A DNA stretch of 64,000 nt from a virus. Its lineage: Duplodnaviria; Heunggongvirae; Uroviricota; Caudoviricetes. Numbering within the stretch: the first letter of the stretch is position 1; each line of letters begins with the position of its first letter. The translations under genes were made by a program, and so were the position numbers. Below, piece by piece: positions 4,437 to 55,440 of this stretch. The notes under the pieces are model-generated. The model worked only from the letters and a program-made list of their open reading frames with translations, was not told the origin of the DNA and did not search any database. The stretch lies in the IMG/VR virus record IMGVR_UViG_3300021255_003500, positions 9,962 to 73,961 of that record. One strand, 5' to 3'.

Positions 4437-4448
4437 GGAGGTGAAGGG

Positions 4449-7400
4449 GTGCTTCGATACAAACGAAACCTGGCGTTGGATATCTTTGACTATGCTGGAC
4501 ATAAGATCTGCAATCTGTATGACAACAGCGGAGATATCAATGGACAGGCTACCAACGTGGTGGTAACCACAGAGCGCAACGGATGGAAGGAGCTTTCCTT
4601 CACTATTCCATCCGTTTGCGAAAACGCTGACGGCAGTCAGGAGGACAACTTCCGGGTCGATCTGCTGAAAGCGGACTATCGGATCCGGTTGATAGACGAC
4701 GATGGAACGGACTGGTATATCATTTCTGAACCTAAGATCGTTCACAATAAGGCGATGAAGAGTGTCAGCGTGACAGCCGGACATATCGCCCAGCTGCTGA
4801 AGACGAAGAACCTTGGACTGGAATTCTAGGACGAGGAAGGGAACAACGTTGGAACAGCGGAGGAGCTGCTGACAACCATTCTGGATGGTACAGGCTGGGA
4901 GCCAGGAGAAGTTGCTACCTTTAAGGAAAAGATGAGCGGCGCCGTGAAGTACAGAAGTCTGAAAGCTTCCGCAAAGACAGGCGCGTTCAAGCTGATCTCC
5001 AACATGTGTGATCTGTTTGAGGCTAAGCCGATTTATCACGGTGATACAAAGAAGATCGACATCGTTCCCATGAACCCGTTCTCCGAACCAGAAGACGGTT
5101 CTCTGCCGGATATTGCAGACGAAAAAAAGTCCAAGGTGATTGAGCTTCGTTATGGCAACAATGTCAAGAACGTTACACGAACGCTGAACACAGAGAACCT
5201 GGTGACGAAGTTGTATGCCTACGGTGCTTTCGGTGATAAAACCAGCGGTTACTGCGGCATCGACGAATGGGTGCACAATGAGTACATCCTGCAGCTGAAC
5301 AATGACGTTCCGGCGGGCAAGGAGTGCGTGCTGGAGATCACCAACGAAGCAACAGGGATCACTTGGAAGCGTTACTTCACGCCGTATGAAGACTTAACAG
5401 TCGGTACGCAAGTGATCTGGTCCGTACTGGATCCTGCGTCCATGAGCTATGTCTGGAACGAAGACGCCGAGCACGCCTATCCGGTTTATCAGAAGCGTAC
5501 ACAGGATGAGCCAGCAGCAACAACATTGGTGGAGACGCAGTCTGTTACCAACTATTTCTCTTTCCTGATGGACTTCGACTATTATCGGGAAGTAGATCTG
5601 CTGACAGACGAGATGATCCAGACGATCGCAGAATACCAGCGTAAGATGCCGGAGCTGCAGCGGATCGTATCAGAGAAAGCAACCCTGTTTGCAGAGAAAC
5701 TGACAGAGCTCAGCGAGATCGTTGGCAGCGGCAACTTCTGCAAGCTGGCGATCAGTGACTATGCCAACAATACAGGCTATCTTCGTCTGACCCTGGATCG
5801 ATCAGAAGACCCGAAGGGTGCGATCTACCGAACGGACTACACGGTCCGGGAGAACAAGCAGTTCAAGTGGCGTGAAGCTGAGAAGCTGAAGGAGAACGGA
5901 GACCCGCTGAATGACGCGGCGTCGATCGTCTATATCATTCATGATCGGAATCCTCTGTCTTACGATACTGCTTATATCAAGGAGATCGAATGGGAGGAAG
6001 GCGATGAGAAGCGCGAGAAGCCGGTTGCTTTTACCCTTTGGCTGCCCTTCACGGAAGAATACCTGGAAAACTTCTCAGATAACCATGTATTCCTGTTTGC
6101 CAGTCACACGGTGAACGGACGGCTTGGCGCTTATCAGACAGCGGACGAGGCTGCGAAAGCCGCGCTGGAATCCACGACCAAAGTGGTTACGGAAAGACAT
6201 CCGGTGTACTTCTCCCCTACCACACCAGACATTGCCATCGAGAATATCCAGGGTTATGCCTGGTGGTGGAAGTACAACAACACGGGTGCGCCATCGGAAA
6301 TGTATTTTTGCTATCGCTACAGCGACTCTTCCGAGTATGCCAGCAGAATCACAGAAGGCGACACCCGGTGGTACCGCATGCATTTCGACAGTACTTTTCC
6401 TATTGCCGCAGCCAAGGACTATTTCTACAACTGGAAAGAGGCGGTCCTTTATCGACTGAACACCGACAACGAGTGGGTCAAGTATAATGAGCGTTCTTCC
6501 GCAGAAGACCGTATGGTTGCCAAGCTTGGATCGATCTTCCGAAGCTGTCAGACGAGAGACGCGCTGTATAACGGCGAGTATCAGTACTATACCGTGGAGC
6601 TGGACACAGATCTGCCAGTTGGCAACTATGCCTTTGCTGACAACTATGGGAATTATTACGCCTTCACCACCAAGACGCCGCTGACTGCCAATGACAAGCT
6701 GGTTTACGATACGACAGAGCGCTGGGTGATCGCAACAGCAAAGTCAAACGATGTCGAGGATATGACCAAGGAAGAGATCATCGACATGACGCTGGAAGCA
6801 AAGGACTATCGTTTTGACAATGTCTATATGCATGCAGCCAATGTGGTTGGCAGAACAGTCTGGGAACCGGGCGCACTGGAGATCATCGAAGGCGCTACCG
6901 TAGAGACAGAGGACTCTGAAAAATACCGTTCTGGTTTCTGCCCCGTATATTCGAACATCGAATATCAGATCAGCGGACTGGCCGGAAACATTGATGTTTA
7001 TACGTACACGATCAACCGCACTTTCCAGGATCATCGGGTGATCAACGCTGTGAATGGCACGATGACAACACCGAACAACTGCCGGTTCATGCGGTTTGTT
7101 TATAACCCGACAGCCAACAATTATACGCCCAGCGATATCCAGAAGTATCTGAACGTAGCAGCGCTGAGCAAGGATAATGCTTTCGTGGTGGACGAGAAGG
7201 AATACCTGCTTTTGCCGCAGCCAAGTGAAGGCAGTGGAGAACTGAAAGGCATCATCCCTTTGACAGGGAAATTCCTGGCAACCGCAGACGAAGCGTTCCT
7301 ATCCGCCAAAGTCATCATGGAACAGGCACAGGCGGATGTGAAAGAGCTGGAAAGCAGACTGGTAAACGATCTCGGAGAGATGTATCGGGAAGGCTACTGG

Positions 7401-8615
7401 CAGAAGAGCGACTATGTGGACGGCGACGAAGAGAAGCTGTACAACGACGCGCTGGAGAACCTGGAAGAGATCGCATTCCCGGAAGCCAAATATCAGGTAG
7501 GCTATCTGGATCTGTATGGCACAGAGCAGCCAGACTTTGGCGTTACAGAGCTGACCAGTGATGTTTTGTGGCCGGATATCAGCATTGACTACGCGGTGCA
7601 TCTGATCGACGACGAGATCGGGATCAGCAAATGGGCGTTCATCGATAAGCTGTCCAAGTGTTATGACCAGCCGTGGAAGACCACGCTGACGCTGAATACA
7701 AAGCTCAGTACCATCGGGCAGCACAGCTTTACGGATGTCATGACCCATATCGCAGAGGTAGCCAATCAGGTGAAAGGCAAGATCGAGGTCTACAACCGGG
7801 CAGAAGTGGTCAATTCTACCGGTCAGGTAGCAGCGGAGATCCTGGAAGGAACCATCGACGCCAACCGGCTGATGATCACCGGAGGCTCCTCTACCTGGTA
7901 TACGGACGACCGGGGCAATCTGATGTTCCAGAGCGCGGATGGCAAGTCTGCCATGGCGATCACAGGCAACGGCTTTGCCATAGCTAACAGCAAGGATGAA
8001 TGGGGCGACTGGGTATGGCGCACCTTCGGTACAGGAGACGGCTTCTCGGCAGACATGATCGTAACAGGTTTCATGTAGGCAGAGCGGATCCTTGCCGGAA
8101 CGATCACTGCCAGCAAGCTGGCTTCCGATGTTGGCGCCAGTCTGGACGTAAGCTCCAATGAGTCTCTGAACCTGGTGGTTGGCGATGCAGTATCCAGGAT
8201 CCGGATGACCGATGAAGAGATCGTCAGCACGATCATGGAAAGTTCACGGTATCAGGCAGACAAGGAAGCTCTGATCGGCAGTGCTGTGCAGCAGACAACC
8301 TCTAACCTGGCGGTTCGTTTCAACACGATCGAGGCGCAGCAGGCGGTTGTCGATGGCAAGATGGAAACAATCAACAATGTGGAGTCCTGGTTCAAGTTCA
8401 ATAACGATGGGACTTTTGACATCGGAAAGTCCGACAGTCCGTTCAGCGTCAAGCTTGGCACCGAAAAGCTTCAGTTCATGAAAGACGACAAAGAGATGGC
8501 GTACTTCCAGAACAATACGCTGTATAACACAGCAGCGGAAATTTCCAATAGGCTGAAGCTTGGCAACTTTACCATAACGGTAACAGACGACGGCGATACG
8601 TTGGTTTGGAATTAA
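4449..8615 (+). CDS. Tail-associated/tail-tip protein (Tal-like), 1388 aa. It reads through in-frame TAG codons at 4827-4829 and 8076-8078.
   Basis: Track ORFs 4449..4829, 4932..8078 and 8175..8615 are all in frame 0. The gaps 4830-4931 and 8079-8174 have no other stops, and the sequence across the TAGs is protein-like (...GFM(TAG)AERILAGTITASKLASDVGASLDV...). The N-terminus resembles the prophage tail endopeptidase N-domain. True stop is TAA at 8613. Confidence 0.75.
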
Positions 8616-19240: not shown

Positions 19241-19336
19241 ATGATCACGAAGACAAAACGAATCATTGCTTTTATTCTGGCTGTCGCTTATTCCGCAATG
19301 CTGATCGGAACTGCAGTTCTTGGGATGCTTCGTTGA
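19241..19336 (+). CDS. 31-aa hydrophobic membrane peptide (MITKTKRIIAFILAVAYSAMLIGTAVLGMLR).
   Basis: AAGGAG RBS 8 nt upstream. One predicted TM helix. Sits directly before the endolysin. Confidence 0.35.
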   Translation: MITKTKRIIAFILAVAYSAMLIGTAVLGMLR

Positions 19337-19343
19337 GCCGGTG

Positions 19344-20138
19344 ATGACAATGGCTGTATCAGCAAAAGAATTCTCCATGCAGGGAGATAAGTATCTTGGT
19401 CGGCCTTACAGTGAGATGGATTGCCAAGCTTTCGTGGAACAAATGATGTCGGATGTCGGCATCAAAACGGATCTGAAAGGATCCAACGCCTGGTTCAGAA
19501 AGGTAACGTGGGTTGGAACACCCGAGGAATGCAAAGCCAAGTTTGGATAGATCCCGGTGGGGGCTCTCCTCTTTATCTGGAAAGATGACGGAGGAGAGAT
19601 CCCCCGGGGGTATAAGGACGGACTTGGCAATGCTTCGCATATCGGTGTCTACATTGCTCGCGAAGAAGGTGCGATCCATTCCAGCAGCAGCAAGCACAAG
19701 GTATGCTACAGTAAGTTCTCTGGCAAGAGTATTAAAGGTGGCTGGAACAGAGTTGGCTTATGGGATCGCTTCGATTACGGGCAGCACATCAACCAAATAC
19801 TGAACCAGGACTCAAATCAAAATGAAAGGGATGAGAGTCCTATGTTATATACTGGTATTATCACATCTTCCAACGGAAAGGGAGCCAACCTGCGATCAAA
19901 GAAATCCACTAGCTCCGATCTGATTGTCAGGATGGGAGAAGGCGACAGCGTTGAAGTGCTCGAAGACAACGGCAGCTGGCTGAAGGTTACATATGGAACC
20001 TATACCGGCTACGTGCTGAAGAGCCTGGTTGCTCAGGCGGACTACGAGAAGGAGACCACGCCTGTTACCGTAACTCTGCCGTACAATATTGCCCTTGAAC
20101 TGAGAGACGCCCTCATCAATGCGATGGGGGTGGGTTAA
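19344..20138 (+). CDS. Endolysin with an NlpC/P60 (CHAP-like) cysteine peptidase domain and a C-terminal SH3b domain. In-frame TAG at 19548-19550.
   Basis: Track ORFs 19320..19550 and 19557..20138 share frame 0 and are separated only by TAG. The catalytic Cys (SEMDCQAF) lies upstream of the TAG and the His (NASHIGVY) downstream. The SH3b-like C-terminus reads GANLRS...WLKVTYGTYTGYVL. Confidence 0.7.
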
Positions 20139-26194: not shown

Positions 26195-26200
26195 AAAGGG

Positions 26201-26285
26201 CGTGGAGTAGAGGATTTGAACCTCTGGAGGCTTCCACCTCGACGGTTTTAGAGACCGCTGCAATAAACCGCTCTGCCAACTCCAC
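26201..26285 (-). tRNA. Amber suppressor tRNA (anticodon CUA). It is a tandem paralog of tRNA-Ser(UGA), with a long variable arm and discriminator G73.
   Basis: GTGGAGT / TTGGCAGAGCGGTTTATTGC / GCGGT-CTCTAAA-ACCGT / variable arm GAGGTGGAAGCCTC / AGAGGTTCAAATCCTCT / ACTCCAC-G. The loop CT-CTA-AA gives anticodon CUA. Confidence 0.8.
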
Positions 26286-26539
26286 GTAAAAAACAGCCCG
26301 AATGCTTTCGCTTCACCACAAAACTACTCGCATATTTACGTAGGGGTTCGGGCTTGTCGACCCCTGCCGGTTTGTCAGTTCCGGCAACTGGTACCTTTGT
26401 CGCATGGTGGTGCATCATGCGGTAGGCGTACAGTTCCTGCGGGGAACATCCCCGCTTCAGATGGACCCGGACCTTTCGGTCAGCCCAGACATATGCCCCG
26501 AGCGCTACTTTCCTGATCAACGGATAGTTTTACAGGGCA

Positions 26540-40572: not shown

Positions 40573-40887
40573 TTAAAAGTCAAAGTCCAGATCCGAATAA
40601 ACAGATACGACGCCTTCCACCGATTCACCAACGGAGCCTTCATCCCAGGCATGATGATGCACACCGTACATCATACCCGGCATGGTGGTTCCCAGATGGT
40701 TGTTGTCGGCATCGTAATGTTCCAGTTCAGAAAAGATGCCGGGGGTGGAGCGTCCTGTATAGGCGCCATGCTCATCGGAATGAACATAGCCGCCCAGCAG
40801 GCCTGGCCAGCTTTCGCCAACCAGGTCGCCGTGCTCGTCATAGTGCTTGATGTTGCCAAACAATCCAGGCACAGAGGTAATCTTCAT
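40573..40887 (-). CDS. Small protein with four repeats of a roughly 20-aa unit (PG.FG...HYDEHGxxxGxSxPG).
   Basis: Internal repeats visible in the translation. Confidence 0.45.
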   Translation of the reverse strand: MKITSVPGLFGNIKHYDEHGDLVGESWPGLLGGYVHSDEHGAYTGRSTPGIFSELEHYDADNNHLGTTMPGMMYGVHHHAWDEGSVGESVEGVVSVYSDLDFDF

Positions 40888-42395
40888 GCAGCATTCTCCT
40901 TTTCTGTTAACTCGTGCAATGTAAACTCGTCCAGATAACAGTCTTCCTTGTCAGAGATCAGAGTTCTGTGTCCTCCATGGAAGGCATAGCGCTTGGCCTT
41001 ATGCCACTTCTTCAGAAGGATGAACTGACCCTGTTTGAGCCCGCTGTCCGCGTAAGCTCGCTTGGTCATCTTCATTGTGCCGCTGACACCACGGCGCACG
41101 TTGTACAGCTTCAGCCGCACGCCATAGAGATCGTCCAGCTCCTCCACAAAGTACAGGTTGGAATCCGCATAAGGATCAAAGCTGGAGCAGCGCATGACAT
41201 ACATATTCTCTGCGGACAGGATCTCTTCGATTGGCAGCGGAAAGTCGTCCATCTTCGCTTCCATATCCGTCAGCGCAGAAAGGCGCTTGGTCTTCGTCTT
41301 CTCGGACAGAGTCTTGGTCAGCTTGGATGCGCCGTTGTAGTATTCATCGAACAGCTTCATCAGCTTTCCGCTTTCTCCATAGTCGGAGAAGTACCCGAGC
41401 TTGATCAGCACAGCGATCTGCCGGGTATTGACAGACGTATTGTTCTGCAGATAGTAAAGCACCTGAATAAAGCTGTCAAAGTATTCCCTGCCAGCCTGAT
41501 ACAGCGCTTCCGCAGCTGTCGCAGAGATGAACTTGATGGAATGCAGGCTCTGGGAGATGGTCTTGGCAGACTTGTTGACCAGCCAGTCGCGGTTGTCCTC
41601 GCCGAAATGTCCCGGTGTGACCCGGATTCCCAGATACCTTTTCATTTCCCGGATGATCAGGGCGATCTTTTCCTTGTTGCCCTTCTCTGTGTACAGCTTG
41701 AGCATGGTCACGTAGAATTCGTAGGGATAATAGGCTTTCAGCCAGGCCGCGTACAGAGAATCACAGGCCATGCTGAAAGCATGAGCGGCACAGAACATAT
41801 AGCTGGCTGCGTCGTTGATGATCGTCCAGATCTTATCGACGATGTCCGCAGCTTCCTGATCAGTCGCTCCTTCCTCTTCCTTCAAGCGCTTCGTAAAGCC
41901 TTCCTCGAAACGCTGGCGGAAGGAAGCGACCTTGTCCGCCTTCTTCTTCTTAATGGCCTTCACACAAACATACGCATCGGCAGGAGGGATATTAGCAGCT
42001 TGCAAAACGTGTAAAATCTGTTCATCGTAGAGTAAAAACGAATCTGGTATCTCTTTTGTCTGCAACAGTTTATCCAGAGAAGGAATACCATAGTCAAATC
42101 TGTTTCTGGAAATAAAGGTTTCCAGCATGGACTTGAAGCCAGGTCGTACAGCAGCTACGAAAGCAGCCAGTTCCACCACGTTCTTCGGTTTATACCGCAT
42201 GACCCGTTCGGTGGTCTTCTCCTTTTCACACTGATTCAGACCCAGGGTGAAGCCGTATTCGTACAGCTGCCAGACCTTCGGGTCATCCTTCACCTTCTCC
42301 AGCAATTCGTCCACCGGCATCACCGGCTGACCGATCGCTTCAAATGCTGCGGCAATGGTCTTGACGACATCGACGCGCAAGTAATCCAATGATAC
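40884..42395 (-). CDS. dnaE: DNA polymerase III alpha (DnaE-type), exon 2 (C-terminal part).
   Basis: Motif MFCAAHAFSMACDSLYAAWLKAYYPYEFY corresponds to the DnaE FNKSHSAAYA...WLKAHYP region. The exon boundary at 42395/42396 is inferred from the omega-G and reading frame. Confidence 0.7.
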   Translation of the reverse strand, partial: VSLDYLRVDVVKTIAAAFEAIGQPVMPVDELLEKVKDDPKVWQLYEYGFTLGLNQCEKEKTTERVMRYKPKNVVELAAFVAAVRPGFKSMLETFISRNRFDYGIPSLDKLLQTKEIPDSFLLYDEQILHVLQAANIPPADAYVCVKAIKKKKADKVASFRQRFEEGFTKRLKEEEGATDQEAADIVDKIWTIINDAASYMFCAAHAFSMACDSLYAAWLKAYYPYEFYVTMLKLYTEKGNKEKIALIIREMKRYLGIRVTPGHFGEDNRDWLVNKSAKTISQSLHSIKFISATAAEALYQAGREYFDSFIQVLYYLQNNTSVNTRQIAVLIKLGYFSDYGESGKLMKLFDEYYNGASKLTKTLSEKTKTKRLSALTDMEAKMDDFPLPIEEILSAENMYVMRCSSFDPYADSNLYFVEELDDLYGVRLKLYNVRRGVSGTMKMTKRAYADSGLKQGQFILLKKWHKAKRYAFHGGHRTLISDKEDCYLDEFTLHELTEKENAA

Positions 42396-43420
42396 CCTCG
42401 GTTTCCCGATATTTATGAGGGGTTTAGACTATCTCTTCATCCACTAGGGATGTGTGGCACTTCGACAACAAGAGTTTCACTTGCTGTCTACTTCCTTCCG
42501 GAATAGTCGTTACACCTTACTCCTACTGGAGTCTTGGCACGGTATTAACATGCAGCATAGCAACAATTTCATTTGTTCTTTGTGCAATATCTTCATCAAA
42601 TCTGATTTCAAACAGAGGGATGTGATGCTCAGCACAAAACGTTCGTTTCAAAGGATCTGTTATCTCTCTTTCATATGTTCCAAATTCTGGATAATACGGA
42701 TCGACACGGTAATGTTGAATGCCTTGCATTTCAATCGCCGCAATTATGTGATTGTCAGTATCCAATATTTGGAAATCAAACAATGGGTATGTCCCATTAG
42801 GAGTTTGTAGTTCTTCATGTCTCTTATTTTGTTTGAAACGAATGTTGTTTTGCTAGAGTATCTCTCCGATAATCTGTTCTCCTCTGCTTTTCACACAACC
42901 GCAGCTTTGTGTTTTACCGGAACGCAGTTGCCAACCTTCTACGACAGCCTGATTACCACAATCACAAACACAATCCCACAAGATTTTATGCTGTCCTGCG
43001 CTGGTTATATTTGTTCCATGATATCCTGTAACTGTCAGTTTTCCAAAACGCAAACCAGCCATATCCCGGATAGGTTTATGAAAGTTTTCTTTTTGCTGGC
43101 AACCACAAGAAACTGTAGTCTATTGACGAAGACTCTGCCCAGAAACAACAGTCGTATTACCACAAACACATTGGCACATCCACATTGTTCTGGGTTTCCC
43201 GCTTGGTAAAATGTGATCTGGAGCACGGTATAAAACCGTAAGCCTCCCAAATTGTTTACCGGTTAAGTCTTGAAACTTAGGCATCATACCACCTCCTAAC
43301 ATCAATATGATATTGTTATGCTGTTTAGTCTTTACCGTTAGCGCACATAAGTGCACACCCTACATGTGTAGGTTCACCACATTATCCTATCCATATTGCT
43401 ATGGCAGGGGCCAATTATTT
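42396..43420 (-). mobile_element. Group I intron (IA2, T4 td-like) interrupting dnaE, with an ORF inserted in the P6-loop position.
   Basis: R-like AACGACUAU and S-like AAGAGAUAGUCU elements form P7. A P8 helix and the 5' GGCC/P2/P3-like AACGUGGUAAACC region are present. Homologous to the second copy at 52137..52404, with compensatory helix changes. Confidence 0.65.
42517..43293 (-). CDS. Intron-encoded putative homing endonuclease. It has tandem Zn-ribbon modules (FGRLTV...W.C.C.CGN...SCGC, twice) and a C-terminal Vsr/DUF559-like PD-(D/E)xK region. It contains three in-frame TAGs (43120, 42853, 42523).
   Basis: Track ORFs 43120..43356, 42853..43062 and 42523..42783 all end in TAG and share one frame. 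Readthrough joins them. ATG at 43293 with RBS AGGAGGTG. Confidence 0.5.
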
Positions 43421-45124
43421 AGCCTTCAAATAACCCTGCGCGTCTGCTGTCTGGCCATCGATATAAGCAGCATATACCGCGTCCTTATTCCCGCTCTTTG
43501 CTTTTACCCGCACTACGCCGATCTCCCTACGGAGATCCTTGTCCAGCAGCAGGTGCGCACAGGGATGCGGAGACAAGGAAGTGATAATACCACGGTAAGG
43601 TTTGCTGTCCTCCACCAGGCTCAGGTATTTCTCTTCAACGTAGTCCTCCAGACGCACATCCATCTCCGGATCGTAGTCGGGATCATCCACGTTGTTCTCC
43701 TTCGCATGCTTCAGGTCGGTTTCATAAGCCTGAATCTGCTTGGAGATCTCGTTAGATGTATCAAAATCCAGATCTCTGGCACGCGCCAGGAGCTTGAAAG
43801 CGGACAGGACTTTACAAGTACCGAAGGCGATCATGGGCAGACAACCCCATTCGCCCAGGATCTCCTTACCAGCCTTCTCAAACGCCGGAACGTTGGACAT
43901 ATTCAGATCCAGATCTGGAAGCGCTCCGGAAGCCAGCCGTTCCTTGGAGATAAAACGCTCTGGATACAGCTTCACCGGACATTTGAGTCGGTTGATGGAG
44001 GTGAAACCCAGGGCATAGTTCGTGGCGAAGGATACGCCAGAACCTCTGCCTGTGGTGGTCAGCACACCGCCATATTTGATCCCCTTGTCCACAATATCCT
44101 TCATGCTCAGGAAGTAGTCTGCGGTTCCTGTGTCGGCAACAGCATTCATTTCTTCGTAGAGCTCGGCCCGGTCTGCCTGTGTCGGCAGCCCGGCCTTCGC
44201 GCTGTAGCCCTTCTGCACTTCTTTCTTGTACAGTGCATTCCGCTGTTCCATGGTCAGTTCCGGATGACTGGTGGGGATCTTCTTCTCCGTGGTGAAGTGG
44301 ACCCCCTCAAATTCCCGGAGCTGCAGGGTATTCTCCATGGCTTCCCGGATCTGCGAAGGGCTCAGGATATGCTGGTTCATCAGCAGCTGATACGCTTCGT
44401 CAGCTGTGGGCAGATAGAGATCGAAGTCATCCTCATAGTCATTCTTGATGCCGGAGGAGAGCAGCAGCTCCTCGCGCAGGGCTGCGTCCTCATGCCGGAT
44501 ATAATGACTGTCGGTACCGTAGATCAGCGGGATATGCGTCTTCCGGTACATGGAGAGGATATGCGCGTTGTGCTCCAGCTGGATCTTCTGGGGATGATGC
44601 TGCACTTCCATATACAGGCTGTCCCCGAAGATGCTGTGCAGCTGCATCAAGTATTCCTCTGCGTTCTCATCTCGCAGTGGACCTGCCACGCAGGCGGTGG
44701 TGCACAGAAAGCGCTTGGGATCCAGCCTGGACAGCAGCTCGAAGTCTACCCGTGGCTTATAGTAATAGCCGGAGAGGTTCGCTTCGGACAGGATGGCATT
44801 CAGCTGACGGAAGCCTTCCATGTCCCTGGCAACCAGCACCAGATGGAAGTTGCGTTTATCTTTCAGCTCCGGGTTCCGATCCGGGACGAAGTAGCATTCG
44901 GCTGCGGCCAGTGCTTTCATCTGGAAGCCGTCTGTCGAGTACTTCTTCGCCATCTCTTCCTGCTGCCAGACGTTGGACCGGTTGCCATGCTCACTGAGAC
45001 ACAGCACCCGCTGTCCCCGGTCCCGGTAGACCTTCGCATAGTCTTCGATGGACATGGTGGAGTCCGGCTGCGTCAGACAATTGGAGTACATGGAATGACA
45101 GTGATAGTTTTCGTACTCGATCAA
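43421..45124 (-). CDS. dnaE: DNA polymerase III alpha (DnaE-type), exon 1 (PHP and palm domains).
   Basis: PHP motif YENYHCHSMYS and palm motif GRGSGVSFATNYALGFTSIN. The track ORF continues to TAA at 43415 inside the intron. The 5' splice site is inferred after GCU (43421). Confidence 0.7.
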
Positions 45125-45136
45125 ACGATCACTTCC

Positions 45137-45490
45137 TTAATTCGGTGGTTTAATCCGTTGCGGTTTCGGGTATTCAATAGACGCAGGACAGTATTCCATT
45201 TCGCCGTTCTGGAAATACGCTTTCCACAGATCATAATTGTCTTCGCCTTCGCCACTCAGTTCAAAGATCATCTCCGGAAACTGCTTGCTGACAGCCTCCA
45301 TATCTTCTTCATAATGATACCACTTCTGGGATTCGCAGCAGTAGAAATCGTAGCGATCACGAACGAAAGCATAATCCTCACAAAATACATAATTCAGCAG
45401 ACCAAGATTTCGGAGACTACTTTTCACCTGGTCAATATTTCCTTCGTTCGCGTTGTACACGGTCAGATTATACGAAGTATAATAACCCAT
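45137..45490 (-). CDS. Hypothetical protein.
   Basis: ORF with TAA stop. Confidence 0.45.
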   Translation of the reverse strand: MGYYTSYNLTVYNANEGNIDQVKSSLRNLGLLNYVFCEDYAFVRDRYDFYCCESQKWYHYEEDMEAVSKQFPEMIFELSGEGEDNYDLWKAYFQNGEMEYCPASIEYPKPQRIKPPN

Positions 45491-51408: not shown

Positions 51409-52136
51409 TATCCGGCCTTCTTCCGAAGGCGCTGCTTGTATTCCCGCCAGGTCTTCTGCCGGTAAAGCTTCTGGCATTCCGGACACCGGAGCTGACGATT
51501 GTTCTTTCGATCCAGGATCTTGCCGCAGTCCACGCAGTTGAACAGCAACTGACCGCCGCTCTTGAAGTTCTTGCAGGCATGATCCGCACACCAGATGGGT
51601 GTCGCCGCACCGCAGTCCGGACAGATCCGGCAGGCGATCAGGTTCTGTTCCAGCGTCCGCAGGGCAATGTTCCCGAAAACCCGCCAGAACATCTGTTTAT
51701 GGGCGTTCTTGGCAATGCCTTCCTCATTAAACAGATGGGTGACAATGGAAGGATAGACCGCTTCTAAGGAACCATACCGATGAATCAGCTGCTCCGAGAT
51801 CTGATCCCGGATAAAGTCATAGCCGATGGAGGTATTGCGTTCCGCCGCGTCCATCTCCTCCGAGACGATGATCTGGTTCGCCCGGTTGGTGTTGTCCATG
51901 CCCTCGAACAGCAGCACCGCATCTCCATTGAACGCGAAAGGCTTCGGCGGCAGCATCATACTGATGTTGAATGGCGCTACCCCTGCCAGGTTCATGTTGA
52001 TATTCGGAATGTCGTCGAACTTGGCGCAGATCCGGTTCATGGTGGAGTTGTTCGGCTGCTTTACCTTGCGCAGCACCTGTCCACCGGGTGCCAAATGTCG
52101 CCCATTTCTTGAGTATTTGAAGAAAAACCTTTCTAC
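51408..52136 (-). CDS. Exon 2 of an intron-split gene of unknown function with C-terminal multi-Cys Zn ribbons.
   Basis: Long ORF in frame with the codon immediately after the intron omega-G (GUA at 52134-52136). The track start at TTG 52094 is probably an artefact. Confidence 0.5.
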   Translation of the reverse strand, partial: VERFFFKYSRNGRHLAPGGQVLRKVKQPNNSTMNRICAKFDDIPNINMNLAGVAPFNISMMLPPKPFAFNGDAVLLFEGMDNTNRANQIIVSEEMDAAERNTSIGYDFIRDQISEQLIHRYGSLEAVYPSIVTHLFNEEGIAKNAHKQMFWRVFGNIALRTLEQNLIACRICPDCGAATPIWCADHACKNFKSGGQLLFNCVDCGKILDRKNNRQLRCPECQKLYRQKTWREYKQRLRKKAG

Positions 52137-52404
52137 CCTCGGTTTCCCGATATTTATAAGGGGAGTAGACTATATCTTCATCTGTATAACAGATGCGTGG
52201 CACTTCGAAGTACCGAATTTCACAGTACTTCTACTCCATAAAGGATAGTCGTTACACCTTACTCATTGCTGAGTCTTGGCACGGTATTGACTTGCGCTAT
52301 GAGAGCGTTTAGTGTTTTACCGTTAGCACAGCATTGCTGTACACCCCATATGTATGGGTTCACCACGTTATCTTATATCCTCACGGATATAAGGCCCTAT
52401 TCTT
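52137..52404 (-). mobile_element. Compact group I intron (td-like, about 268 nt, no internal ORF).
   Basis: About 170 nt of the 3' core and about 90 nt of the 5' part are shared with the dnaE intron. UAACGACUAUCCUUUAUGGAGUAG and GAAGAUAUAGUCU closely match the T4 td P7/P3/P8 region. P1 covaries (exon GCCU/intron GGGC here, versus GGCU/GGCC in dnaE). Confidence 0.6.
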
Positions 52405-52548
52405 AAGGCATTTGTCCATTCTTTCCACCAACCAGCTTCGAAATGAACTTATTGATCGCAGGATATTGTTCGTAAGAGTTGATCACGCCAGACTTTGCAC
52501 CATCAATCCCTTGCTACTGTATGTTTCCATACAGAGTAGACTGTATCA
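52405..52548 (-). CDS. Exon 1 (48 codons, one in-frame TAG at 52513-52515) of the intron-split gene. It is preceded by a 3-codon mini-ORF (MSL) whose UGA stop overlaps this exon's AUG (AUGA).
   Basis: ORF MIQSTLYGNIQ(TAG)QGIDGAKSGVINSYEQYPAINKFISKLVGGKNGQMP ends exactly at the inferred 5' splice site. Upstream RBS AAGGAGAGA. Confidence 0.4.
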
Positions 52549-52591
52549 TAGACTCATGGAGTCTCTCCTTGTCAGTCGTTCGGGCGCACTA

Positions 52592-53278
52592 TCAGTTGGC
52601 GCCACGGGATTGCCTTGCTCGTGTATTGTGGTGATTAGCTGCACAATACTCATCCCATCCTTCTACTTCAACGAAGCGCCAGGAACGATTGCTTCTTATT
52701 GCGTTGATGTTTGCACGAGAGATGTTGTATTTTTCAGCTAAATCATCCCATGATATATTAGCCATAAGATCCTTTTTGATTTCTGCTACTTGGGTTGCTG
52801 TAAGTTTTGTTGTTTTCATTGGTTCTTCGTTGAGAATTTTATGAATTCTGGTCGCAATCATTTTATCGCTCATCCCTTCCGGGCGTTTTTTGCCAAGACG
52901 AGTACGCGACATTTTGGCTTTCGTTTCTTCGGAAGCTTTCTTTCCAGTATTTAATCGACGATTCAGTTCACCGAGTTCTTTGCGTCTGTATTCCGGCAGC
53001 GGGACGCCGTGTGCTCCAGCTCCTCCGTCGGCGATGTTACAACAATGCCCAACTTCGCGAGCTTTAGCAATGTATTCAATTTCTAAATCGTCTAATAAGC
53101 TTTCGTCTTCAACTGATTTTAATACTGAAAATTGAAAAGCTTCTTCTCCATACTTATTATACGAAGATTGCAACCATTTGTTATCATGCTGGTTAGTTCT
53201 TAACTTCCAACGATGAAAACAATAGCGTTTTTCAAAAGACTCTCTTGTCTGACCAACATAAACCAAACCAGAAATCAA
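52592..53278 (-). CDS. GIY-YIG homing endonuclease with a C-terminal NUMOD/HTH DNA-binding domain.
   Basis: ISGLVYVGQTRESFEKRYCFH matches the GIY-YIG motif. C-terminus has TKLTATQVAEIKKDL...SRANINAIRSNRSW. Confidence 0.7.
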   Translation of the reverse strand: MISGLVYVGQTRESFEKRYCFHRWKLRTNQHDNKWLQSSYNKYGEEAFQFSVLKSVEDESLLDDLEIEYIAKAREVGHCCNIADGGAGAHGVPLPEYRRKELGELNRRLNTGKKASEETKAKMSRTRLGKKRPEGMSDKMIATRIHKILNEEPMKTTKLTATQVAEIKKDLMANISWDDLAEKYNISRANINAIRSNRSWRFVEVEGWDEYCAANHHNTRARQSRGAN

Positions 53279-53418
53279 GTTTCGGATCTCATAAATGCCT
53301 ATCTAATTACGATAGATATCTTCGTTGACGAAATGCATCATATGATCACCACCTTTCATTTGTAATACACGAGTTTAGGGTTTCCCCGTTATTCGGAGTT
53401 CAATAACATGTCGCCATG

Positions 53419-55440
53419 TTAAGGGGCAATTATGTTTACCTGATTATTATAGTAGCAAAGTAATCCACTGGCACGGATCTCATCTTCGCCGATGGTATTA
53501 CGGTTCCAGAGCTTGCACAGATTGTTGGAGATCTGCCCGATACCGGAACAGTCATGGGCACGCTGCACCGCCTTGTACATCATGAGGCTGTCGATTTTCT
53601 CCGGCTTCGCTGCGTTCGCGTCGTAGAACAGCGGGATGATATTAAACTTCTCGACGTTGCGCTTCGCTGCCTGCACGATGACATTCTCGACAACCACATG
53701 CAGCTGGTCCCCATCGCAATCGAATTGCAAAATTCTGCTGATGAGATCATGCACGCTAGTATAGACGCCATTGGACCGCAGCCAGGAGTATACATCGGAC
53801 CGGTGCGTAATGCGCCGGACCGCGTGTTCCATGGACAGATGAGGAGACCGGAGGCAGTCGGCCTCGTCGAAGGCCTGGTAAACCCGGCAGGCGATCTCTC
53901 CGTTCTGCAATAAGCCAGGCGGATGCTCCATGTGCAGGAACCAGAACTGACAGGCTGCATACATATCCGGGATGACGAACATACGCTTATTCCGACAGAC
54001 AATGCGGCCAGATTGGGCGTCGTAGGTCCAGCGGCGCTTGATATCCCGCAGAGTCTGACGGCAGTATCCATCCCGCAGCAACGGCGGATACAGGCTCAAA
54101 GCCCTGCGAAAGGGCTGATCGCTGTAGACATCCGCTCGCAGCACCCGCAGCATGGTCTCCGGATCCTTGGCGATATCATGAATCTTGTTCCAGGTCTTCT
54201 GTGTGAAGCGGTCGATCTCCTCATCCGTGAAGTCCACCAGAGTTTCCAGGAACTGGTAATTCATGTAAGCGTCCGGGATATAGGTTTCCTCATAGTTGGT
54301 ACGGGCGAAGGTCCAGCCGCATTCCCGGAAGCAGCGCTTGTAGTGCTCCCAGTTGTCATAATATTTCCAGAGTTTCAGCTGGGACTTGGTGAAGATCACC
54401 CGGATATCCTCTGCGATCAGATCATGATAATCTCCCCAGACATCCTTGATCAGCGGACGCTCGATGCCATGCTCCCGGCAGAAACGCAGGAAGTCAAAGG
54501 GCGTCAGCAGACCTTTCAGGTAGAGACCACGGACCATGAAGTTAAAATCGCAGACAGAGGGCAGCATCATTCCGACACCGTCACAATGGTTGATCATGAC
54601 GGTGCGCTCGCCGATCTCCTCCGTATAGTCCGGGTTGATGAACTTCATCATGCCGGTGACAGGGGCTTCAAAGTCCGGGATCACGATGCAGCGGTCGATA
54701 TCCAGCTCCGGCCAGGGATCCGTAGCGCCGGTGCACAGAGCGGTATAAGCCAGCAGCTTCGCCGCGTTGATGCCGCCGTGAGCGTTGATCACATCCCAGG
54801 ACATACCGCCTTCGAAATGGGTATGGATCTTCTCCCAGGCGTCCACGGAGATGAACTGCACCTTGTCCGTCCGCAGCTGGCCGGCAGACGCCGTGAGGAA
54901 ACGGTAACGCTTCATCTGGATGGTGCCATCCGGGTGCTCGATGGGGATGACGAAGCCGTCCACGCACATCTGGCGCAGGATATCCGTGGACTTCCAGCGG
55001 ATGATCACCTTATCGAAGGTGACCTCATCCTTGCCGATGCCCAGAGTGCGGCTGAAATCAGAGAAGAACTCTGCGATCCTTCTGGACTGGCGGAGGGTAT
55101 TCCACGCAATGCCTTTGGGCATTACAGGCTTTTCGTCTTCCCAATTGAGGAAACGGGTATCTACCACGTTCGCCACCCGCAGGACCCTGGCCTTGCCATC
55201 GTGCTTCTGGATCTCCGTTTCCAGTTCCAGCTGCTTGGACTTCTTCCGGGTGAACAGCTGCTCCCGAAGCTCCGATTCCATGTCTTTTTTGCCGGCAGCC
55301 TTCGCTTCTTCCTCCGCGTTCTTCAGATCTTCAATGGCTGCCATGATCTCCGTATAGAGATCATATTCCTTCTTGGTGAAGAAATCCGTGGTAGAGAAGG
55401 TACAAAGACGGTACTGCTGGCTCAAGTAGGATTTTAACAT
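53419..55440 (-). CDS. YonO-like non-canonical single-subunit RNA polymerase (two-barrel, DxDGD type).
   Basis: ILQFDCDGDQLHVVVENV resembles the beta-prime NADFDGDQ catalytic motif. 673 aa. Confidence 0.55.
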   Translation of the reverse strand: MLKSYLSQQYRLCTFSTTDFFTKKEYDLYTEIMAAIEDLKNAEEEAKAAGKKDMESELREQLFTRKKSKQLELETEIQKHDGKARVLRVANVVDTRFLNWEDEKPVMPKGIAWNTLRQSRRIAEFFSDFSRTLGIGKDEVTFDKVIIRWKSTDILRQMCVDGFVIPIEHPDGTIQMKRYRFLTASAGQLRTDKVQFISVDAWEKIHTHFEGGMSWDVINAHGGINAAKLLAYTALCTGATDPWPELDIDRCIVIPDFEAPVTGMMKFINPDYTEEIGERTVMINHCDGVGMMLPSVCDFNFMVRGLYLKGLLTPFDFLRFCREHGIERPLIKDVWGDYHDLIAEDIRVIFTKSQLKLWKYYDNWEHYKRCFRECGWTFARTNYEETYIPDAYMNYQFLETLVDFTDEEIDRFTQKTWNKIHDIAKDPETMLRVLRADVYSDQPFRRALSLYPPLLRDGYCRQTLRDIKRRWTYDAQSGRIVCRNKRMFVIPDMYAACQFWFLHMEHPPGLLQNGEIACRVYQAFDEADCLRSPHLSMEHAVRRITHRSDVYSWLRSNGVYTSVHDLISRILQFDCDGDQLHVVVENVIVQAAKRNVEKFNIIPLFYDANAAKPEKIDSLMMYKAVQRAHDCSGIGQISNNLCKLWNRNTIGEDEIRASGLLCYYNNQVNIIAP

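Follow-up and report, generated by a model that had tools for sequence, protein, structure and literature searches.

A group I intron in a phage dnaE gene carries a Vsr-like nuclease gene with in-frame amber codons

The group I introns annotated in terL of Staphylococcus phage PH15, in yonO of SPβ-like phages (phi3T, BUCT083) and in the tape-measure gene of Geobacillus virus E3 belong to one family. Their common layout is P1-P2(GNRA loop)-P3-two small hairpins-P4-P5-P6-P7-P7.1-P7.2-P3'-P8-P7'-P9(GAAA loop). The PH15 and yonO introns carry ORFs for GIY-YIG nucleases, which PH15 and BUCT083 have between the P4 strands, i.e. in P5; the E3 intron has no ORF. GenBank presents the PH15 terL intron as a joined CDS with the GIY-YIG gene inside. 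As far as the records show, none of these phages is amber-recoded. The T4 td intron interrupts the thymidylate synthase gene and has an IA-type core with P7.1 and P7.2, and its ORF, for the GIY-YIG nuclease I-TevI, sits in the P6 loop. A survey found phage 'IA2' introns to be heterogeneous and poorly covered by current models (PMC11878797). Fractured dnaE genes with Vsr-like endonucleases also exist (PMC2677866). Finally, Borges et al. described, in 'Agate' phages that read TGA as Trp, an intron endonuclease gene that is enriched in the recoded stop and lies in an early gene without it, and proposed that the in-frame stops hold the nuclease back until late infection (bioRxiv 10.1101/2021.08.26.457843).

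The window (the whole stretch of phage DNA that was analysed, 64,000 nucleotides) contains a member of the PH15/yonO/E3 family, these three being its closest annotated relatives. The host gene differs, however: it is dnaE instead of terL, yonO or a tape-measure gene, and the intron ORF encodes a Vsr-like and not a GIY-YIG nuclease. A literature search did not find a described group I intron in a phage dnaE gene, which does not prove that there is none. We consider it very likely that phage dnaE is interrupted here by a mobile group I intron whose Vsr-like nuclease gene depends on a suppressor.

The dnaE gene, like the intron and all its parts, lies on the minus strand of the window. Exon 1 (43421-45124) encodes the PHP domain and most of the DNA_pol3_alpha domain (Pfam positions 10-233 of 260) and ends in …AAG GCU, with U43421 as its final base, fixed from intron-less relatives. 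Exon 2 (40884-42386) starts with GAU UAC (D Y) and encodes the end of the pol3_alpha domain, the finger and HhH. This division of dnaE into PHP/pol3-alpha and finger/HhH parts, proposed in an earlier reading made from the letters only (the sequence-only reading), was recovered by Pfam. The exons are separated by an insert of about 1 kb with a 256-codon ORF that holds in-frame TAGs. The insertion point falls between the …YLKA and DYLRV… codons, in the conserved KxDFLGL-type motif with which the pol3-alpha domain ends. Joined across it, the predicted full-length DnaE has about 1070 amino acids and aligns as one piece, at about 36% identity, to uninterrupted phage DnaE genes (tblastn; Bacillus, Geobacillus and Psychrobacillus phages). 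When the dnaE region was compared with phage genomes by megablast, no close relative was detected, the sole match being a 47-nt stretch of the intron core. Upstream of dnaE, a 117-codon ORF (window 45125-45490, minus strand) ends in a TAG that is in frame with dnaE and four codons before its TTG start; readthrough of this TAG would give an N-terminally extended DnaE fusion, but the arrangement may be a coincidence.

The boundaries of the intron were determined from intron-less relatives, from the DNA of one of them and from the continuity of a Pfam domain. Among 37 related dnaE loci taken from IMG/VR, 36 are uninterrupted at the insertion site of the window, and in all 36 comparisons zero extra nucleotides remain only when 43420-42387 is excised, which yields YLKA|DYLRV. 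The intron thus extends from 43420 to 42387 (1034 nt). The DNA of locus L007 reads AAGGCT|GATTAC, identical to the intron flanks in the window, where splicing would join …CAGGGUUAUUUGAAGGCU to GAUUACUUGCGCGUC… (43421/42386). Across this junction the Pfam DNA_pol3_alpha match covers positions 10-259 of 260 with 84.2 bits. The sequence-only reading had ended the intron at 42396, 9 nt too early, and its junction, which would continue into GUAUCAUUGGAU…, gave …KA|VSLDYL…; with that product the Pfam match stops at 233, as it does with exon 1 alone, and the three residues VSL are surplus relative to intact homologs. Its expectation that an alignment of the spliced protein would restore dnaE as one gene was borne out, but with …KA|DYLRV… at the junction. 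Two ORF-less introns in dnaE of locus L013, with junctions set by the conserved protein, both end in a …CCGACGGUNUAAAAG tail, which confirms the position of the 3' splice site in this intron family. In the window, a U precedes the 5' boundary and the last intron base is G42387 (…CAUUG).

The two ends of the intron contain the parts of a complete ribozyme. The 5' half (43318-43424) begins with P1, in which exon GGCU (43424-43421) pairs with the guide GGCC (43412-43409) over 4 bp only, with a U·G pair at the 5' splice site. Immediately 5' of the guide, the strand UAAUU (43417-43413) can form a 5-bp P10 with GAUUA of exon 2. P2, with a GCAA loop (43408-43386), is followed by the 5' strand of P3 (43381-43375), two small hairpins (43372-43359 and 43354-43343), the 5' strand of P4 (43338-43333) and the 5' strands of P5/P5a (43330-43318). 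The 3' half (42387-42558) contains P5a'/P5' (42558-42547), P4' (42544-42539), P6/P6a (42538-42516), P7 (42508-42503), the covarying P7.1 (42502-42493) and P7.2 (42488-42464), P3' (42459-42453), P8 (42452-42438), P7' (42432-42427) and P9/P9a with a GAAA loop (42421-42395), and its tail ends in the terminal G at 42387. Several of these elements had been seen in the sequence-only reading and are indeed present: GUAACGACUAU and AAGAGAUAGUCU, which pair as P7, P8 (CAUCC/GGAUG), the guide GGCC with exon GGCU, and the P2 hairpin. One string that it quoted, AACGUGGUAAACC, is absent from the sequence, which has AAUGUGGUGAACC. P5 contains what we take to be a variant 11-nt GAAA-tetraloop receptor, and with GAAA in L9 this suggests that the usual L9–P5 contact forms. 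The two small hairpins (window 43343-43372, minus strand) covary, have a conserved GUGU between them and lie between the P3 5' strand and P4; the pair is common to the intron family, whereas a short J3/4 is all that td and other classical group I introns have at this point.

We tested the structure with covariance models of the 5' half (R1) and the 3' half (R2), built from 28-29 ORF-less introns with the window and its homolog in locus L018 left out. R1 matches the window at 43424-43325, beginning at the splice site, with 66.5 bits (E=3.8e-13), and R2 at 42546-42423 with 109.1 bits (E=6e-22). The earlier proposal of a group I intron in dnaE is thus confirmed far beyond chance (4e-13 and 6e-22) by models independent of the window. 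It had suggested an Rfam search: at the gathering score (50 bits) Rfam found no intron in the whole window, and under permissive settings RF00028 matched only the 3' 200 nt of the intron (18.9 bits, E=0.047). Rfam misses this intron because the ORF splits it. The shortfall also reflects a low sensitivity to the lineage, since RF00028 scores ORF-less relatives below 50 bits (40 bits for the L013 introns, 42.5 bits for a sister intron in the window) and does not detect the introns that split terL in a Twort-like phage.

Covariation was counted with an explicit structure on 20 sequences, including the window and L018 introns with their ORFs deleted. Pairing was found in 84.5% of cells, compared to 36–43% when partners were slid by 1–3 columns; the covariation score was 0.39, compared to at most 0.12 in the slid controls, and 0 of 500 shuffles matched the observed values. 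Across these sequences P3, P4, P6, P7 and P9a are 100% paired, P3, P4 and P9a with compensatory changes. Double changes affect 5 of the 7 positions of P3, and 53 pairs overall. Covariation thus backs the conserved core helices, P3-P8 and P4-P6, together with the P3/P7 pseudoknot. An alternative P3 through the GUGUG between the two small hairpins was discarded because, unlike the P3 adopted here, which pairs at 100%, it fails to pair in the E3 and L013 introns. At the same dnaE site, L018 bears an intron and an ORF homologous to those of the window (66% nucleotide identity), and its P5a (UAAUGUUUC/GAAACAUUA) is unrelated in sequence to that of the window (CAGCAU/AUGCUG) yet still complementary. 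All together, these results identify the dnaE interruption as a group I intron of IA type, with P7.1 and P7.2.

The same locus could in principle be read as a dnaE gene truly split by a free-standing homing endonuclease gene, with no splicing and two DnaE polypeptides, as in some T4-like split genes or the 'fractured genes' of Dassa et al.; fractured dnaE genes with Vsr-like endonucleases are on record (PMC2677866). Exon 1 indeed reaches a stop two codons on, and a TTG start is available near exon 2. However, the ORF has on either side of it the parts of a full group I core that covaries, a U stands before the 5' boundary and the last base of the insert is a G, formation of P1 and P10 is possible, intein motifs are absent, and the break falls inside a conserved domain motif that excision restores exactly. 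Because the ribozyme is complete and covarying and the junction exact, we rule out a split gene, to which we give a negligible probability, and retain a group I intron.

Blastn with the 3' core matched 288 genomes of Staphylococcus, Enterococcus, Bacillus and Listeria phages, within terL, DNA polymerase and nrd genes, and a pattern search recovered 101 family members from IMG/VR. R1 and R2 score 57–103 bits on the PH15 terL, BUCT083 yonO and Geobacillus E3 tape-measure introns. The dnaE intron is therefore a member of a known, widespread phage intron family. It had been called td-like, which holds for part of the 3' half. The T4 td intron itself, identified through a 100% match, shares the IA-type P7–P7.1–P7.2–P8 core and the strings UAACGACUAU…GAGUAG…GAUAUAGUCU, and R2 matches it weakly (43.9 bits, E=5e-8, compared to 84–104 for family members). 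The resemblance does not extend to the 5' half: R1 has no match in td, where no such pair of hairpins separates P3 from P4, and the ORF of the window is not in P6. The two ORF-less family introns of L013 (L013:3535-3824 and L013:4056-4345; 290 nt each) occupy different positions in dnaE, LMFD|EQIL and ASYMF|CAAHA; dnaE of this phage group thus has at least three intron insertion sites.

Other group I introns are apparent in the window. A second intron of the same family, about 277 nt long and without an ORF, lies at approximately 52129-52405 (minus strand) and scores 65.5 bits with R1, 109.4 bits with R2 and 42.5 bits with Rfam. Its host gene, 55497→51408, matches phrog_8308, has a weak RdRP Pfam match and a DxDGD motif, and probably encodes a YonO-like RNA polymerase. 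A probable third group I intron lies in the same gene, at about 52517-53440 (minus strand), based on a weak R1 match (53440-53376) without the two small hairpins and an Rfam match of 21.9 bits at 52776-52517; its ORF (53374→52592) encodes a GIY-YIG/NUMOD homing endonuclease and has an in-frame TAG immediately ahead of the GIY motif.

The ORF of the dnaE intron (42517-43287; 256 codons plus TAA) is preceded by a Shine-Dalgarno sequence, AGGAGG (43297-43292), 5 nt upstream of its ATG; a promoter and terminator scan of the intron, including the region upstream of the ORF, found nothing above chance. The sequence-only reading had put the ORF in the P6 loop, where td carries its own. The R1 and R2 matches and the strand coordinates place it between the P5a strands instead, i.e. 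in the P5 loop, as in PH15 and BUCT083, with its 3' end overlapping P5', P4' and P6. The tandem Cys-rich repeats and the three TAG codons reported in that reading are present. The two CxCxCG…SCGC repeats constitute a putative zinc-ribbon-like DNA-binding region. They fall in the N-terminal 135 residues, which had no Pfam match to NUMOD, whereas enzymes of the I-Bth0305I type carry NUMOD/HTH motifs there (PMC3239194, PMC2677866). The Vsr-like C-terminus was also confirmed: a structure predicted from the TAG-free C-terminal domain only has the Vsr-type fold, with I-Bth0305I as its best PDB match and Vsr as the next. A sequence-profile search of the PDB detected no similarity to I-Bth0305I. Residues D171, E186, G189, H192, D211 and K214 are invariant in the family alignment, and are compatible in kind with the E-D-x-H-D motif (including D196, H213 and D222) of I-Bth0305I, an enzyme from a recA intron of Bacillus phage 0305phi8-36.

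The ORF has 782 homologs in databases, nearly all unannotated. All aligned homologs end in …NTVP(S/R), the translation of AAUACCGUGCCAAG (P4'/P6), and several read further into …EGVTTI…, which corresponds to GAAGGUGUAACGACUAU. Since the C-termini of the homologs are translated ribozyme core, the nuclease family is tied to the intron family. At window 42517-42560 (minus strand) and in P0006, P0010, P0011 and P0014, the C-terminus reads …NTVPS/R and at times …EGVTTI…KCHA…DEDIV, that is, a translation of P4', P6, P7, P3' and J8/7, with protein and RNA constraints acting on the same bases.

Elsewhere in the window TAG is a sense codon. A tRNA with a CUA anticodon (26198-26286, minus strand), found by ARAGORN, is a class II amber suppressor of Ser type: its variable arm is long, it carries G73, and it is 78% identical to the adjacent tRNA-Ser(UGA), compared to 65% to tRNA-Leu. 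The tRNA cluster adjoins a DUF3800-XI RNA motif (window 26441-26487, minus strand), which Rfam detects above its gathering score (60.6 bits). In-frame TAGs occur within tape-measure, tail and lysin genes, as well as in the two intron nuclease genes; the TAG-bearing regions on the plus strand are 3-2714, 4437-8615 and 19305-20138. At a tail TAG site (GFM-X-AERILAGTITASK) 7 of 9 homologs have Ser, and at a lysin site (AKFG-X-IPVGALLF) Ser is present in 56 of 120 homologs, Arg in 11, Gln in 6 and Leu in 0. No TAG occurs in dnaE or the other replication-side genes of the window. The features of code 15 are thus found in part, with a suppressor tRNA and TAG in late genes but not TAG as glutamine, and the phage most probably reads TAG as Ser. 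The literature that we searched on phage recoding describes only TAG as Gln and TGA as Trp. In related loci the use of TAG is different: dnaE of L013, L004, L005, L016 and L017 contains many in-frame TAGs (22 in L013, at L013:1471-5215), and at 19 of the 22 L013 sites the window has L, several of these columns being more than 85% Leu. This suggests that the relatives, unlike the window, read TAG as Leu.

Within the nuclease ORF, TAG is found at codons 56 (43120-43122), 145 (42853-42855) and 255 (42523-42525). The first two occupy variable, polar positions, where homologs have G/N/E/K/R and N/K/S/Q/T, respectively, and the third is two codons ahead of the TAA, in the P6a loop. The TAGs could nevertheless be true stops, leaving a 55-residue fragment of a dead or dying pseudogene in a real but immobile intron. 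Homing endonuclease genes are known to decay after fixation, and no in-frame stop is present in the close L018 homolog or in any database homolog; moreover, the first TAG falls on a Gly of the wider-family consensus, and a Ser at this position may not give an active enzyme. Decay would not be expected, however, to leave the ORF free of frameshifts with every invariant residue beyond the TAGs kept. Compared with L018, pN is 0.22–0.28 and pS about 0.79 in all three ORF segments (0.22-0.26 and 0.79-0.80, respectively, in those after the first and second TAGs), and the ORF is under purifying selection along its length. In addition, the window encodes a CUA tRNA, its tail and lysin genes use TAG as sense, and its second intron nuclease (GIY-YIG) also has an in-frame TAG. 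A pseudogenised nuclease is therefore unlikely. Given the Ser-type CUA tRNA, the late-gene TAGs at Ser sites and the purifying selection, the TAG codons of the ORF are probably translated. Because the ORF has amber codons and dnaE none, a full-length nuclease would need an active suppressor, and suppressor-gated late expression is plausible. The gating idea itself has been published for the TGA-recoded 'Agate' phages; the codon and the amino acid (TAG, most likely Ser) are new here, in another phage lineage and another host gene.

From these observations we propose that the pre-mRNA folds as a ribozyme, in which an external guanosine would attack after U43421 in the P1 U·G pair; the terminal G42387 would then dock for exon ligation, guided by P10, to give an uninterrupted DnaE. 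The nuclease gene in the P5 loop would be translated from its own ribosome-binding site, and its product would combine Cys-rich zinc-ribbon-like repeats for DNA binding with a Vsr/I-Bth0305I-like catalytic domain. Such an enzyme may cut intron-less dnaE near AAGGCT|GATTAC, upon which the intron would be copied in. Full-length nuclease would be made only when the Ser-type CUA tRNA of the phage is active, which probably delays or limits its production.

For annotation, the consequence is that the phage dnaE is one gene and not two, and that the right junction is needed to predict the protein. Rfam at its gathering score and gene calling with code 11 miss both intron and nuclease. With this locus, dnaE joins the essential phage genes colonised by a widespread intron family, at three insertion sites among relatives. 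The nuclease ORF also provides a case with TAG for the published proposal that the recoding of stop codons postpones homing-endonuclease production. Two by-products are more unusual: TAG apparently means Ser here and Leu in relatives, and the C-terminus of the nuclease is encoded by the ribozyme core. Tentatively, and with somewhat more doubt than belief, we extend the first of these to a broader possibility, in which the phage reads TAG as Ser and thereby gates both the Vsr-like nuclease in dnaE and the GIY-YIG nuclease in the YonO-like RNA polymerase gene, while the two genes that house these introns are themselves without TAG. Its relatives would instead read TAG as Leu and place it without restriction in dnaE. 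Amber would then differ in meaning between related phages and a transferred intron nuclease would be mistranslated, so that differences in genetic code would hinder or regulate intron homing.
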